4,401 nucleotides of DNA. It comes from a virus. Taxonomy: Duplodnaviria > Heunggongvirae > Uroviricota > Caudoviricetes. Below are positions 1 through 4,401 of this stretch, in pieces. Each line of letters begins with the position of its first letter. Position 1 is the first letter of the stretch. The stretch lies in IMG/VR virus record IMGVR_UViG_2529292907_000005; one strand, 5' to 3'. A program made the translations under genes and the position numbers. A model generated the notes under the pieces. The model did no database searches. It saw only the letters and a list, made by a program, of their open reading frames with translations, and was not told the origin of the DNA.

Positions 1-1
1 A

Positions 2-2182
2 TCAGCCAGCGAGGCGGCAACTCATGCGACTGATGCTGCAGGCTCAGCACGTGCAGCCAGCACGTCAGCCGGACAGGCCGCGTCGTCGGCTCAGTCAGCG
101 TCTTCCAGCGCAGGAACGGCATCGACAAAGACCCGTGAAGCAGCAAAAAGTGCTGCTGCTGCAGAGTCATCAAAAAGCGCGGCAGCTACCAGCGCCAGTG
201 CCGCGAAAACGTCAGAAACGAATGCCGCAGCATCACAAAAATCGGCAGCCACTTCTGCATCCACAGCGACCACGAAGGCGTCAGAAGCTGCCACCTCGGC
301 ACGGGGTGCGGCGGCCTCAAAAGAGGCAGCGAAATCTTCAGAAACGAATGCATCATCAAGTGCCAGTAGTGCAGCTTCCTCGGCAACGGCGGCAGGAAAT
401 TCCGCGAAGGCGGCAAAAACGTCCGAGACGAACGCTAAGTCTTCTGAAACAGCAGCGGGACAGAGCGCCTCAGCTGCGGCAGGTTCAAAAACAGCGGCTG
501 CATTATCTGCCAGTGCCGCGTCAACAAGTGCCGGGCAGGCCTCAGCCAGTGCCACCGCCGCCGGAAAATCGGCAGAAAGCGCCGCATCATCCGCTTCAAC
601 AGCCACAACGAAGGCTGGCAAAGCCACTGAGCAAGCCACTGCAGCAGCGAGGTCTGCTTCTGCAGCAAAAACCTCTGAAACAAATGCAAAGACTTCAGCA
701 GACAATGCTGCTTCCTCTAAGGCGGCAGCCGCATCGTCAGCCAGTTCAGCGGCGTCATCGGCATCATCTGCGTCTGCTTCAAAAGATGAGGCGACCAGAC
801 AAGCGTCAGCAGCGAAAGGTAGTGCCACGACAGCAACAACGAAAGCATCAGAGGCGGCAGGCAGTGCGACGGCTGCATCTCAGAGCAAAGTTGCTGCTGA
901 ATCCGCGGCAACGCGCGCCGAGACAGCAGCAAAACGGGCAGAGGATATTGCATCCGCCGTGGCGCTGGAGGATGCGAGCACGACGAAAAAGGGGATAGTA
1001 CAGCTCAGCAGTGCGACCAACAGCACTTCCGAGTCACTGGCGGCAACGCCAAAAGCGGTTAAGGCGGTAATGGATGAAACGAACAAGAAAGCCCCATTAA
1101 ACAGCCCGGCACTGACCGGAACGCCAACAACACCAACTGCGCGACAGGGAACGAATAATACCCAAATCGCAAGCACGGCTTTCGTTATGGCTGCGATTGC
1201 CGCCCTTGTAGATTCGTCACCTGATGCACTGAACACGCTGAACGAGCTGGCTGCGGCGCTGGGCAACGACCCGAATTTTGCGACCACCATGACTAACGCG
1301 CTTGCGGGTAAGCAACCGAAAGATGCCACCCTGACGGCGCTGGCCGGACTTACTACTGCGGCAGGCAAGTTTCCGTATTTTACGGGGAATGATGTCGCCA
1401 GCCTGGCAACCCTGACAAAAGTCGGGCGGGATATTCTTGCGAAATCGACCGTTGCTGCCGTTATCGAATACCTCGGTTTACGAGAACTCGGCACAAGCGG
1501 GGAGAAAATACCGTTACTCAGTACAGCGAATACCTGGACTAATCGACAAACATTCAGCGGTGGCCTTTCAGGTGAACTATCCGGCAATGCTTCTACAGCT
1601 GCAAAATTAAAAACTGCCAGGAAAATAAGCAATGTGGCTTTTGATGGTTCCTCCGATATCACATTAAAAGCAAGTCATGTTGGTGCGTTTGCCTTAGGGA
1701 AAACAGGAAGCACCGTTGCGAATGATAAAGCAGTTGGATGGAACTGGAGTAGCGGAGCCTATAACGCAACTATTAGTGGTGCATCAACGTTAATTATTCA
1801 TTTTTATATGGGAGAAGGAAGTTGTCCTGCAGCTCAGTTTCGGATTAATTATAAAAATGGCGGTATTTTTTATCGTTCAGCCCGTGATGGTTATGGTTTT
1901 GAAGCCGACTGGTCAGAGTTTTACACCACGACCCGCAAACCCTCTGCGGGAGATGTTGGTGCATACACGCAGGCAGAATGTAACTCAAGGTTTATTACAG
2001 GTATTCGCCTTGGCGGTCTGTCATCTGTTCAGACATGGAATGGTCCCGGCTGGTCTGACAGGTCAGGTTATGTCGTTACGGGTTCAGTTAACGGAAACCG
2101 TGATGAATTAATTGATACAACTCAGGCAAGGCCAATTCAGTATTGCATTAATGGGACGTGGTATAACGCGGGGAGTATTTAA
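2..2182 (+). CDS. stf: Side tail fibre protein, 5'-partial: Ala/Ser/Thr-rich repeat shaft followed by a variable C-terminal (receptor-binding) domain; the start codon lies upstream of the window
   Basis: Frame 2 is open from the window edge to TAA at 2180..2182. The ORF track shows only 959..2182 because there is no in-frame ATG/GTG/TTG before the GTG at 959. My translation of 2..958 gives low-complexity repeats (...SAAKTSETNAKSSETAAGQSASAAAGSKTAAALSASAASTSAGQASASATAAGKSAESAASSASTATTKAG...), which I recognise as the lambdoid Stf-type shaft. The ORF continues through ...KFPYFTGNDVASLATLTKVGRDILAKSTVAAVIEYLGL and ends ...RPIQYCINGTWYNAGSI. Family assignment is from memory, not a search. Confidence 0.9.
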   Translation, partial: SASEAATHATDAAGSARAASTSAGQAASSAQSASSSAGTASTKTREAAKSAAAAESSKSAAATSASAAKTSETNAAASQKSAATSASTATTKASEAATSARGAAASKEAAKSSETNASSSASSAASSATAAGNSAKAAKTSETNAKSSETAAGQSASAAAGSKTAAALSASAASTSAGQASASATAAGKSAESAASSASTATTKAGKATEQATAAARSASAAKTSETNAKTSADNAASSKAAAASSASSAASSASSASASKDEATRQASAAKGSATTATTKASEAAGSATAASQSKVAAESAATRAETAAKRAEDIASAVALEDASTTKKGIVQLSSATNSTSESLAATPKAVKAVMDETNKKAPLNSPALTGTPTTPTARQGTNNTQIASTAFVMAAIAALVDSSPDALNTLNELAAALGNDPNFATTMTNALAGKQPKDATLTALAGLTTAAGKFPYFTGNDVASLATLTKVGRDILAKSTVAAVIEYLGLRELGTSGEKIPLLSTANTWTNRQTFSGGLSGELSGNASTAAKLKTARKISNVAFDGSSDITLKASHVGAFALGKTGSTVANDKAVGWNWSSGAYNATISGASTLIIHFYMGEGSCPAAQFRINYKNGGIFYRSARDGYGFEADWSEFYTTTRKPSAGDVGAYTQAECNSRFITGIRLGGLSSVQTWNGPGWSDRSGYVVTGSVNGNRDELIDTTQARPIQYCINGTWYNAGSI
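195..690 (+). repeat. Degenerate in-frame repeats inside the stf shaft region, built on a ~21-nt unit encoding K-[TS]-S-E-T-N-A
   Basis: Four copies of the motif AAA-[AT]C[GTC]-TC[ACT]-GA[AG]-AC[GA]-AA[TC]-GC are seen near 196, 331, 417 and 668 (gcgaaaacgtcagaaacgaatgc, gcgaaatcttcagaaacgaatgc, gcaaaaacgtccgagacgaacgc, gcaaaaacctctgaaacaaatgc). They sit within a longer Ala/Ser-rich low-complexity region spanning about 1..960. Confidence 0.6.
1222..1481 (+). repeat. Left arm of a long inverted repeat (partner 4142..4401), lying in the stf constant region just outside the crossover site
   Basis: Direct comparison of + 1222..1481 with the reverse complement of 4142..4401 shows the inner 116 bp (1366..1481 vs 4257..4142) identical and the outer 144 bp differing at about nine positions by eye. 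Homology stops abruptly at 1482 (cGAgaaCtCg vs cAGgaaAtGg). Confidence 0.9.
1461..1486 (+). other. Putative serine-invertase crossover site (gix/pix/cix/hix-like), left copy, with core dinucleotide at 1473..1474
   Basis: TTATCGAATACC-TC-GGTTTACGAGAA is an imperfect 12-2-12 palindrome matching the TTATC..AAACC-NN-GGTTT..GATAA pattern of DNA-invertase sites as I recall them. It lies exactly at the boundary between flank homology and the divergent cassette. Confidence 0.7.
2168..2175 (+). promoter_or_regulatory. Ribosome-binding site for tfa (GCGGGGAG), about 9 nt upstream of the ATG; translationally coupled to stf (stop at 2180..2182, start at 2185)
   Basis: Purine-rich GGGGAG at 2170..2175 sits at canonical spacing from the ATG at 2185..2187. 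Confidence 0.55.
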
Positions 2183-2184
2183 TT

Positions 2185-2718
2185 ATGCAGCACTTAAAAA
2201 ACATTACTGCTGGCAATCCTAAAACAAAAGAGCAATACCAGCTAACAAAGCAATTTAACATCAAATGGCTTTATTCAGATGATGGAAAAAACTGGTATGA
2301 GGAACAAAAGAATTTCCAGCCAGACACATTGAAAATGGCCTATGACCATAACGGCGTTATTATTTGTATTGAAAAGGATGTTTCAGCAATTAATCCGGAA
2401 GGCGCAAGCGTCGTTGAATTACCTGATATTACAGCAAATCGCCGTGCTGACATTTCGGGTAAATGGATGTTCAAAGATGGCGTAGTGGTAAAGCGAACTT
2501 ATACCGAGGAAGAGCAGAGGCAGCAGGCGGAAAATGAAAAGCAAAGCCTGCTACAGCTCGTCAGGGATAAAACCCAGCTATGGGACTCACAGCTACGGCT
2601 GGGCATCATTTCCGACGAGAATAAACAAAAATTAACAGAGTGGATGCTCTTTGCGCAGAAAGTCGAATCTACAGACACTTCCAGCCTGCCAGTAACGTTT
2701 CCCGAACAACCTGAATGA
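2185..2718 (+). CDS. tfa: Tail fibre assembly protein (Tfa-type chaperone), 177 aa
   Basis: Intact ORF from the track, starting 2 nt after the stf stop with a good RBS. The protein ([22 protein letters not shown]...[30 protein letters not shown]...) matches my memory of enterobacterial phage Tfa proteins, and its position immediately downstream of a tail fibre gene fits. Confidence 0.9.
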   Translation: MQHLKNITAGNPKTKEQYQLTKQFNIKWLYSDDGKNWYEEQKNFQPDTLKMAYDHNGVIICIEKDVSAINPEGASVVELPDITANRRADISGKWMFKDGVVVKRTYTEEEQRQQAENEKQSLLQLVRDKTQLWDSQLRLGIISDENKQKLTEWMLFAQKVESTDTSSLPVTFPEQPE

Positions 2719-2721
2719 GAC

Positions 2722-2748
2722 AAGGCCCGCTATCGGGCCTTAATTTTT
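2722..2748 (+). terminator. Intrinsic terminator hairpin between the convergent tfa genes (8-bp GC-rich stem AAGGCCCG / CGGGCCTT, 4-nt loop, then AATTTTT)
   Basis: Perfect inverted repeat at 2722..2729 and 2734..2741 followed by a T-run at 2744..2748, located in the 28-bp gap between the tfa stop (2716..2718) and the tfa' stop (2747..2749). The U-tract is good only for the + strand direction. Confidence 0.6.
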
Positions 2749-3273
2749 ATTCAGGCTTTTGTGGCCATTCGGGATTTGCTGTATCCACACGGCTGACCAG
2801 AACGCTGTAGCGTTCCCATGACTCCAGTCGTGCGCGCTCCTCATCCGTCGCCATGTTCAGCCTGACAGCGCGTTCCAGTGGCTGGATAACTGATTCAGCT
2901 TCGGAAAGTAATGCGGCCTTTTGTGATTTGGCCTGTTGTTGCTGTTCGTCTGCCGTATAAATCCGCTTAACTACAGCCCCGTCCTTAAACATCCACTTAC
3001 CTGAATCATCGGCACGGCGATTAGCTGTAATATCAGGAACTTCAACGACGCTATAGCCTTCAGGGTTAAGCGTGGAGGCATCTTTGGTGATGGCGACAAT
3101 AATATTATTCTCGTCATAAAGAATTTTTATTGTGTCTTCCTGAAAGTTCTTTAATTCCTCGTACCAGTTTTTCCCATCTTCTGACCACAACCAGATAACA
3201 TCAAAATTCTTTGTTAGCTGATATTGCTCTTTTGTTTTAGGATTGCCAGCAGTAATGTTTTTAAATGCTGCAT
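2747..3273 (-). CDS. tfa: Second tail fibre assembly protein (tfa'), frame-disrupted as sequenced: the ATG at 3273..3271 encodes MQHLK, then a one-base-shorter poly-A tract shifts the frame (stop at 3216..3214); the homologous frame is open from 3190 to the stop at 2749..2747
   Basis: The reverse complement of 3273..3250 is ATGCAGCATTTAAAAACATTACTG, against ATGCAGCACTTAAAAAACATTACTG in the + copy at 2185. The other frame reads ...[36 protein letters not shown]... and matches the track ORF 2747..3190, whose listed start is a TTG. The C-terminal part (...[35 protein letters not shown]...[30 protein letters not shown]) is Tfa-like. Confidence 0.8.
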
Positions 3274-3276
3274 GAT

Positions 3277-4092
3277 TTATACCTGTGCAACGTTATACCA
3301 TGTGCCATTGATGTATTTTTGTATTGGTCTGAACACAGCCGGATCATCGCCATCAACTTCGCCGACAATGCCAAGCCCCGTAATTGCATGGCCTGATTTT
3401 TCATACATCACGCCTCTTTGCATAGTTTGAACAACACGCGTGCCAAGTCTGACATCTCTCACATAGCGTGAATCAAAATTCCCCCAGTTGCTGGGTTGTA
3501 TCTGACCGTTTACAGCAAATATCACCGAGTTATCTGTATTTCGCTGACTATAGAAATGCCAGCCTGAATCATCACCAAGCTCTGCAACAGTTGGTCTTGA
3601 TGAAGCGCCCCATAAATTAAACCCTACGTTCTTCGTGGAGTTGTTGGAGCTGGATAGCGTGAATTTTTTACCATCCCCAGCCTGAATATTTTTAAAAGCA
3701 ATAGCCACTCCATTCTGAAAGCGGAATACACGCTGACTATTAGCATAAACATCAAGAATACCGTCTCCATTCTGTTTAAATCCGGTATCATTATCACCAA
3801 GAACAATAGAGCTACCACCTAACGCATTCGTCGTACCAACTCCAAGGCTGCCATTAATGACGGCATTAACAAGAATATTTAGCGCATCCCATTTCAGCGT
3901 CATCAGGTCTTTTGTTGTGGTGCTTTGTTTGCTTCTCCATTTGAAATATTCATTGCCGTTGTCGCCTGTTTCAAACCACATGTATGAATCAGTGTCACCA
4001 TCGGCATCATTTTTAAATCCAATCTTCGCCCAGTCAGTATTTCGAATCCAGGCAAGGATTGAGTCATTTTCAAAAGTAAGCCCACCGGACAA
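3277..4092 (-). CDS. Alternative tail-fibre C-terminal variable domain (inverted cassette); the frame is open upstream to 4116 but is not in frame with the fibre constant region as sequenced
   Basis: Track ORF of 271 aa, whose listed start is a TTG at 4092..4090, ending ...[17 protein letters not shown] with the same C-terminal motif as the + strand fibre. Upstream in this frame it reads RRAKNGDTL before a stop at 4119..4117. It is followed 3 nt later by the tfa' ATG. Confidence 0.8.
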
Positions 4093-4401
4093 AGTATCGC
4101 CATTTTTTGCACGGCGTTACCAGCCCTGTTTACCATTTCCTGTAAACCGAGGTATTCGATAACGGCAGCAACGGTCGATTTCGCAAGAATATCCCGCCCG
4201 ACTTTTGTCAGGGTTGCCAGGCTGGCGACATCATTCCCCGTAAAATACGGAAACTTGTCTGCCGCAGTAGCAAGCCCGGCCAGCGCCGTCAGGGTGGCAT
4301 CTTTCGGTTGCTTACCCGCAAGCGCGTTAGTCATGGTGGTCGCAAAATTCGGGTCGTTTCCCAGCGCCGCCGCTAACTCGTTCAGCGTATTCAGTGCGTC
4401 A
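3900..4401 (-). CDS. Inward-reading tail-fibre constant-region copy, 5'-partial (continues beyond the right edge); it reads through the crossover site and, because of the frame problem at 4103..4108, runs into a stop at 3902..3900
   Basis: The reverse complement of 4401..4142 encodes DALNTLNELAAALGNDPNFATTMTNALAGKQPKDATLTALAGLATAADKFPYFTGNDVASLATLTKVGRDILAKSTVAAVIEYLGL, near-identical to + strand residues encoded at 1222..1481. It then continues QEMVNRAGNAVQK and an out-of-frame tail (MAILCPVG...QQKT*). Confidence 0.65.
4137..4162 (-). other. Putative serine-invertase crossover site, right copy, with core dinucleotide at 4149..4150
   Basis: The + strand reads TTCCTGTAAACC-GA-GGTATTCGATAA; the minus strand reads TTATCGAATACC-TC-GGTTTACAGGAA. 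It has the same outer half-site and core as the left site and differs at 2 positions in the inner half-site. My recollection is that it is very close to the Mu gix sequence. Confidence 0.7.
4142..4401 (-). repeat. Right arm of the long inverted repeat (partner 1222..1481); it reaches the window edge, so its true length is unknown
   Basis: See the left arm: 116 bp identical plus 144 bp with about nine mismatches. Confidence 0.9.

Follow-up and report, generated by a model that had tools for sequence, protein, structure and literature searches.

The 4,401-nucleotide (nt) stretch of IMG/VR virus record IMGVR_UViG_2529292907_000005 (the window, i.e., the whole stretch of DNA that was analysed) carries two phage tail-fibre tips that end in the same motif, each followed at once by a tail-fibre assembly (tfa) chaperone gene. 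The two tfa genes converge and share near-identical 5′ ends, forming an inner inverted repeat between positions 2125 and 3335. This raises the question of whether the repeat is a site where tips and chaperones are recognised and exchanged, or a trace of how such paired genes evolve. Very likely, the 2125–3335 region is the centre of an invertible host-range segment of the type of the Mu G, P1 C and e14 P segments, and the junction between tip and tfa combines a docking feature common to the whole family with local gene conversion. The system is thus a known one; its main junction feature occurs throughout the family and is accounted for by the solved complex of a Tfa chaperone with its fibre, while the conversion patch is a minor addition.

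As the earlier note had read from the sequence, both tips end in RPIQxxINGTWYN, with the motifs located at 2129–2167 (plus strand) and 3292–3330 (minus strand). The start codons of the chaperone genes come directly after the tips, i.e., after 2 nt for tfa(+) (ATG at 2185) and after 3 nt for tfa(–) (ATG at 3273). The 5′ block of tfa(+) (2185–2250) and that of tfa(–) (3273–3209, minus strand) are identical in 63 of 66 alignment columns, with two mismatches and one 1-nt gap, and the longest exact inverted match spans 41 nt (2197–2237 vs. 3222–3262). These blocks form the two arms of the inner repeat, of which the tfa(–) arm (3209–3273) holds both the 1-nt deletion and an A-type conversion patch at tfa nt ~18–48 that is described further below. 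Among codons that specify the same amino acid in both genes, 20 out of 22 are identical within the block vs. 38 out of 65 in codons 23–115 (Fisher p = 0.008), so the similarity within the block indeed exceeds that of the remaining homologous N-domain.

The proposed limit of this similarity at ~22 codons nevertheless did not hold, since the inverted homology goes on at 74% identity over 348 nt (2194–2541 vs. 2918–3265). It runs through a conserved mid-tfa block at the boundary of the N- and C-domains (2422–2481 on the plus strand, with its copy at 2978–3037 on the minus strand), a bin in which the copies are 90% identical. At the protein level, Tfa(+) and Tfa(–) are identical over residues 1–22, about 67% identical over residues 23–115 and about 29% identical beyond, which agrees with the claim that the Tfa C-termini differ. 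The bodies of the tips differ as well, although their last ~70 amino acids (aa) proved to be homologous (37% identity, E = 1e-9).

A segment resembling Mu G

The plus-strand fibre gene (a side tail-fibre or Stf gene; 2–2182) has its 5′ end outside the window and is intact within it, with 726 open codons from nt 2 up to the stop codon at 2180–2182 and TTQARPIQYCINGTWYNAGSI as C-terminus. Its product consists, in order, of a lambdoid Stf-type Ala/Ser-rich shaft, a constant part up to ~1473 (with the C-terminal end ...AAVIEYLGL at 1454–1480) and a Mu S′-type variable tip, the last 168 aa of which are near-identical to Mu S′ of PDB 8JU3 in a sequence comparison against the PDB. The C-terminal domain of ~66 aa (1982–2179, plus strand), which we propose to be a Tfa-docking module, ends in RPIQYCINGTWYN (at 2129–2167) and is also homologous to residues 433–503 of Mu S. 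Downstream, tfa(+) (2185–2718, plus strand) is an intact gene with the Mu U′ sequence, encoding a U′-type chaperone of 177 aa that matches the Pfam family Caudo_TAP (PF02413; E = 1.8e-36, 125.6 bits vs. a gathering cut-off of 22.1) and, in the PDB comparison, also Mu U (5YVQ_B).

On the opposite strand, tfa(–) (2747–3273) is of the Mu U / P2 G type. Although the gene is frameshifted after codon 5, its frame-corrected translation (175 aa) matches Caudo_TAP (E = 4e-36, 124.5 bits, with the same cut-off) and closely resembles Mu U (chain 5YVQ_B), and an intact tfa(–) is present in Escherichia coli 15A and in the related P2-like contig L011. The variable part of the minus-strand fibre (3277–4136, with its stop codon at 3277–3279 and its frame broken at 4103–4108) has a P2 H-type tip, which in the PDB comparison corresponds to Mu S over its N-part and to P2 H from there on. 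It is preceded by the constant part (4163–4401, minus strand) of another fibre gene, which is P2 H-like, continues past the edge of the window and extends into a full-length fibre gene of 628–716 aa in the relatives L011, L078 and L001.

A degenerate gix pattern identified exactly two sites in the window, in inverted orientation and with 0 expected by chance. The left gix/cix-like crossover site (TTATCGAATACCTCGGTTTACGAGAA; 1461–1486, plus strand) is situated inside the fibre gene at the boundary of its constant and variable parts, and the right one (TTATCGAATACCTCGGTTTACAGGAA) lies at 4137–4162 on the minus strand. Both differ from the gix sequence at the annotated G-segment boundaries of Mu (TTATCCAAAACCTCGGTTTACAGGAA) at 2–4 out of 26 positions (i.e., about 23/26 matching). 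Moreover, the sites belong to an inverted repeat of 265 nt with 96% identity (1222–1486 and 4137–4401), the outer arm of which includes the second constant part at 4163–4401. Even with up to 3 mismatches allowed, the pattern matched these two outer sites alone and nothing within 2100–3400, in contrast to multiple-inversion (p15B Min-type) systems with their additional internal sites.

According to the proposed explanation, two paralogous cassettes, each comprising a fibre tip and its own Tfa chaperone gene, would lie tail to tail within a segment of 2.7 kb that a serine invertase from outside the window would flip at 1461–1486 and 4137–4162. Such a flip would fuse one or the other tip to the constant part of the fibre, with the tip's own tfa gene positioned downstream.

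Among known systems, the G segment of Mu (Sv-U / U′-S′v, inverted by Gin) resembles the window in gene order, convergent layout, nucleotide identity (~91%), 26-bp sites and junction motifs; the plus-strand cassette corresponds to S′/U′ and tfa(–) is close to U. However, the 5′ blocks of U and U′ in Mu are only 76% identical, its inverted repeats measure 34 bp and gin adjoins the segment, whereas the window combines a lambdoid Stf constant part and a P2 H-like minus-strand tip body, with no invertase inside the window. The invertible segments of Mu, D108, P1 and P7 are ~88–92% identical to the window over nt 1684–4162, and the C segment of P1/P7 (Cin) and the P segment of e14 (Pin) are likewise homologous invertible host-range cassettes of tip and chaperone (~89% over 1684–4144; for background, see bioRxiv 10.1101/2022.07.24.501295). 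P1-like plasmids in E. coli (L004) depart from the window by a chimeric Tfa, the N-domain of which is A-type and the C-domain B-type, and in P1, inverted repeats of 0.6 kb flank the segment ends. The H-G region of P2 is 88.5% identical over nt 2747–4401, but P2 has a single fixed cassette.

Related loci were collected into a working set via an IMG/VR scan, while a scan of genome contigs gave 5 distant loci only; the set of 91 sequences consists of Mu, loci of E. coli and Shigella, and 80 contigs from IMG/VR. Among the related loci in P2-like prophages, either switch state is common, with the invertase adjoining the B tip in 30 and the A tip in 20 of them, and the H gene is fused to an A-type tip in L013 and to a B-type tip in L011. 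Homology of the window to the P2-like contigs starts at 1457, and L011 is 99.7% identical to it over 1457–4401. The L011 segment adjoins an invertase, and this gene lies within ~100–200 nt of a site in L011, L078, L003 and L013. Unlike in the P2-like prophages, the flank opposite the H-like gene in the window is a lambdoid fibre and not an invertase.

Lambdoid genes annotated as 'prophage tail fiber N-terminal domain' match nt 1–4166 of the window at ~92%. The left arm of the outer repeat is of lambdoid type as far as 1365, and over 1366–1481 it is identical to the right arm; this change at 1365/1366 suggests a recombination joint in the constant part. The segment is bordered by a fibre constant part on both sides (lambdoid Stf on the plus strand, a P2 H-like gene on the minus strand), with no invertase between, so that one invertible segment appears to be common to two convergent fibre genes of different phage types. 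The same layout was observed in E. coli 15A (NZ_CP077477.1, nt 1–50000; L001/L092), where two P2-like halves constitute an inverted duplication of ~38 kb; two recombinase genes lie side by side at the start of that record. An actual inversion between prophages might have produced the layout with two constant parts, or else it may be an artefact of the assembly.

As sequenced, tfa(–) is not an intact gene, because the 1-nt gap in its 5′ block (an A5 run at 3258–3262 on the minus strand vs. A6 in the plus copy) shifts the frame after codon 5. A second 1-nt deletion, in the run at 4103–4108, disrupts the frame of the minus-strand fibre after ...GNAVQK and before NGDTLSGG.... Apart from these two deletions, the window agrees fully with E. 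coli 15A over nt 2340–4401, and in a comparison of 137 tfa starts and 17 fibres, no other sequence had either of them. They stem either from errors in sequencing or from recent mutations that inactivated an unexpressed cassette. Phase variation at the two homopolymer runs was considered and rejected, since the short run lengths occur in the window alone in this comparison.

Several points weigh against the assignment of the window to the Mu G family of switches. A tblastn search revealed no serine invertase in the window, the right flank of which is taken up by the second fibre constant part (239 nt past the right site), so that switching of this particular copy is putative. Both minus-strand genes are frameshifted, so that the cassette may be dead here, or the deletions may be sequencing errors. 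Finally, the loci of the working set were chosen by their similarity to Tfa(+), and the linkage counts between modules given below are neither phylogenetically independent nor unbiased.

A family-wide junction with local conversion patches

All cassettes in the 91 sequences show the same junction, i.e., a tip ending in RP[IVL]Q..I[NG]G[TI]WYN followed by a chaperone starting with MxHLKNI..GN[PA]KT.EQY[QE]LTK, and this includes a Tfa protein that is only 46% identical overall. Across the whole Caudo_TAP family (105 full-length representatives), M1, K5, N6 and P12 are conserved and residues 13–27 are variable. On the basis of these alignments, the junction at the protein level is a feature of the family and not special to the pair in the window.

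At the nucleotide level, the mean identity between A and B copies in the 66-nt block is 0.80 (59 pairs), with a value of 0.758 for Mu, and a block identity of 0.955–0.97 is confined to L078, L011, L001 and the window. Copies within one locus are no more alike than copies from different loci (0.80 in both cases), which led to the rejection of general concerted evolution for the block. The alignment revealed that the U-type copy of this lineage carries U′-type bases at nt ~18–48 (AAC ATT ACT GCT GGC .. CCT .. GAG), that the U′-type copy has the partner's AAT at codon 11, and that it also has the partner's CAG at codon 2 in L011 and the window; L078 represents an intermediate state of this converted allele. 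The rise in block identity from the usual ~80% to ~96% is due to this patch of ~30 nt in the minus-strand copy. In the proposed explanation, a lineage-specific conversion would have copied the ~30 nt of U′ type into the U-type copy, while codon 2 would have moved the opposite way. Short-patch gene conversion, which is the probable mechanism, would leave just such a patchwork of donor and recipient bases. In the proteins, the positions altered by the conversions are residues 2, 8, 9 and 15. In E. coli, 8 out of 469 matching records (~2%) contain the converted allele at an identity of at least 99%.

Comparable patches were found elsewhere in the family. A third tfa type carries an independent U′-type (A-type) patch at nt ~10–48 in L070 and L079, and lacks it in L018 and L055. 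Moreover, in the P2-like prophage locus L003 (NZ_CP098219.1, 4200–6100), the convergent cassettes share a tract of about 480 nt with 100% identity, which extends over the last ~190 nt of the tip and the first ~290 nt of tfa, and the Tfa C-domain has been swapped too. The inner inverted repeat is accordingly much longer in L003 than in the window. A tentative and rather unlikely extension of these observations is that the first ~50 nt of tfa would be a recurrent, directional target of short-patch conversion between inverted cassettes. If so, selection may hold one common chaperone N-terminus for different tips or, alternatively, template-switch repair may make the inverted paralogues of invertible segments gradually palindromic, which would yield substrates for a second, invertase-independent layer of rearrangement.

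The identity of the two 5′ blocks might instead stem from a constraint on the mRNA or its translation, if tfa is translated in coupling with the end of the tip gene and its initiation region has to stay A-rich and unstructured, which would fix the synonymous sites. The stop codon and ATG are indeed 2–3 nt apart, the last tip codons contain a GGAG-like sequence at a position that corresponds to the annotated ribosome-binding site of U in Mu, and the folds of both junction RNAs are less stable than those of shuffled controls (z = +0.7 and +1.27). However, many synonymous and non-synonymous differences are tolerated in the block elsewhere (i.e., at the 76% identity of Mu and the mean of 80% over the 59 pairs), the changes form a mosaic of the partner's bases and do not point to a single optimum, and no Rfam family matches the junction, which makes such a constraint an improbable cause. 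With no relevant Rfam match and folding no better than that of shuffled sequences (the same z-scores), an RNA element at the junction was discarded as well.

Collapsed or mixed reads of two similar tfa 5′ ends could also produce near-identity as an assembly artefact, and the two homopolymer indels in the window, which are possibly sequencing errors, as well as the unusual flanking architecture would fit with this. Since six complete E. coli genome records contain the converted allele with 100% identity and eight contain it with at least 99%, and since it is also present in the independent IMG/VR contigs L011 and L078 (the latter in its intermediate form), it is hardly conceivable that the near-identity arose in this way. 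Lineage-specific conversion on top of a family-wide protein motif thus remains our explanation for the block.

Docking and exchange of modules

The earlier note had assigned recognition by the chaperone to the conserved junction itself. An AlphaFold model of Tfa(+) (with a predicted local distance difference test score, pLDDT, of 95.9) contains strands at residues 3–4 and 8–10, helix a1 at 15–24, a short helix at 83–86 and long helices at 108–139 and 144–161, and the block of 22 codons covers the strands at the N-terminus as well as the greater part of helix a1. The modelled N-domain superposes on 5YVQ_B with a root-mean-square deviation of 0.9 Å over 103 residues (Foldseek E = 1.3e-15, target TM-score 0.97). 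According to PMC9608196 and PMC7291167, which both refer to North 2019, the Tfa of the Mu complex 5YVQ attaches through its N-domain to the distal, receptor-binding end of the fibre, with contributions of helices a1, a3 and a4, and the C-domain is thought to trimerise. Tfa(+) is like the Mu Tfa of this complex in having two domains, i.e., a putatively fibre-binding N-domain and a helical C-domain.

The blocks best conserved between the Tfa paralogues (residues 1–22 and 80–99) cover the predicted helix 15–24, taken as a1, and the predicted helix 83–86, which in the model may correspond to one of the published helices a3 and a4. Contacts between the fibre end and the N-domain are putative at the level of individual residues. 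The general rule of a variable N-domain and a conserved C-domain is reversed in the window pair (67% identity in the N-domain vs. 29% in the C-domain), likely because both tips share one docking domain.

Across 154 cassettes, in which five modules were typed, the last 210 nt of the tip and the Tfa N-domain were linked by type in every case (154/154; e.g., type 1 with type 1 in 80/80), and neither of the two mixed combinations of tip-end and N-domain types 1 and 2 occurred. In the same cassettes, reassortment affects the tip body, which lies upstream, and the Tfa C-domain, which lies downstream. Among the listed relatives of at least 80% identity, an A-type C-domain is joined to other N-domains in more than 100 protein clusters. 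Because tip end and N-domain are linked without exception, the junction lies inside a co-inherited, putative docking module. The claim of chaperone recognition is therefore sustained for a larger unit than the junction, i.e., the last ~70 aa of the tip together with the Tfa N-domain, on the strength of the 5YVQ literature, the model superposition and the 154/154 linkage. In mechanistic terms, the last ~70 aa of the fibre (with the RPxQxxINGTWYN end) and the N-domain would travel as one docking module, in which the N-domain start (M-x-HLKNI..GN[PA]KT.EQYQLTK) would form the first strands and helix a1. The N-domain would bind the folded distal end of the fibre, and the C-terminal helical domain would serve as a generic, exchangeable trimerisation module.

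The junction had further been regarded as a substrate for homologous exchange. This holds for non-reciprocal conversion, which has left its marks in the window lineage, in L070/L079 and in L003, but no crossover at the junction was found. Specifically, the two predicted crossover products (i.e., the plus-strand tip with the tfa(–) body and the minus-strand tip with the tfa(+) body) were built and searched against 5,426 complete E. coli genomes, yielding no full-length match above 87.5% identity to either product. Full-length matches had their breakpoints in the mid-tfa block or about 210 nt upstream of the tip stop codon, and the Tfa C-domain swaps in L003, L004 and L005 break at the mid-tfa block. 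The expected reshuffling of tips and chaperones at this point was thus not borne out, as the breakpoints in relatives lie elsewhere, and the junction is not a boundary at which the two are recombined. Deletion of the DNA between the copies can be dismissed on principle, since recombination between inverted repeats leads to inversion and not to deletion.

Inversion between the copies would make the inner repeat a working second-level switch, in which either a RecA crossover or a secondary invertase site in the block of 41–66 nt would invert ~1 kb and thereby swap the chaperones. The minimal length for RecA recombination in E. coli is below 41 nt. The exact match of 41 nt thus exceeds the RecA minimum, homologous exchange between cassettes does occur (cf. 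the conversion patches and the L003 tract), and the C-domain swaps in L003 and L005 are consistent with inversion at another internal homology. However, the empty search for both crossover products, the absence of mispairing between tip end and N-domain in the 154 cassettes, the lack of a gix-like site in the block even with 3 mismatches and the confinement of the long exact match to a minority lineage of ~2% render such a switch highly improbable. A secondary invertase site in the block was discarded outright on the basis of the gix search. Since paralogy and conversion together account for the inner inverted repeat, we regard it as a by-product and not as a functional site.

Remaining features and implications

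A terminator-like hairpin identified by a terminator scan is located between the convergent tfa genes (2722–2741, plus strand; RNA fold of –29.6 kcal/mol, z = –5.65). It is GC-rich and followed by a T run, forms a longer stem together with both flanking stop-codon regions, and probably ends transcription of the plus-strand operon. Within the shaft of the plus-strand fibre, positions 200–694 hold degenerate direct repeats of ~33 nt (..AAKTSETNA..), five copies in number with 62–100% identity and irregular spacing, as is typical of lambdoid Stf shafts. Three weak matches to isrG (RF01390, a Salmonella small RNA family) were obtained at 174–935 on the minus strand, antisense to the Ala/Ser-rich repeats, with 18–26 bits vs. 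a gathering cut-off of 100. These matches are probably noise driven by the repeats, or else a hint that isrG might have originated from a prophage fibre gene.

The accepted picture of these host-range switches remains unchanged by our analysis, the main value of which lies in annotation and engineering. The conversion patches provide a small, clean case of concerted evolution between inverted paralogues in a programmed-inversion element. For the engineering of Mu-, P1- and P2-type fibres or pyocins, the module linkage implies that the last ~70 aa of the tip and the Tfa N-domain should be moved together, whereas nature already exchanges the parts on either side, namely the receptor-binding tip body (upstream) and the Tfa C-domain (downstream).

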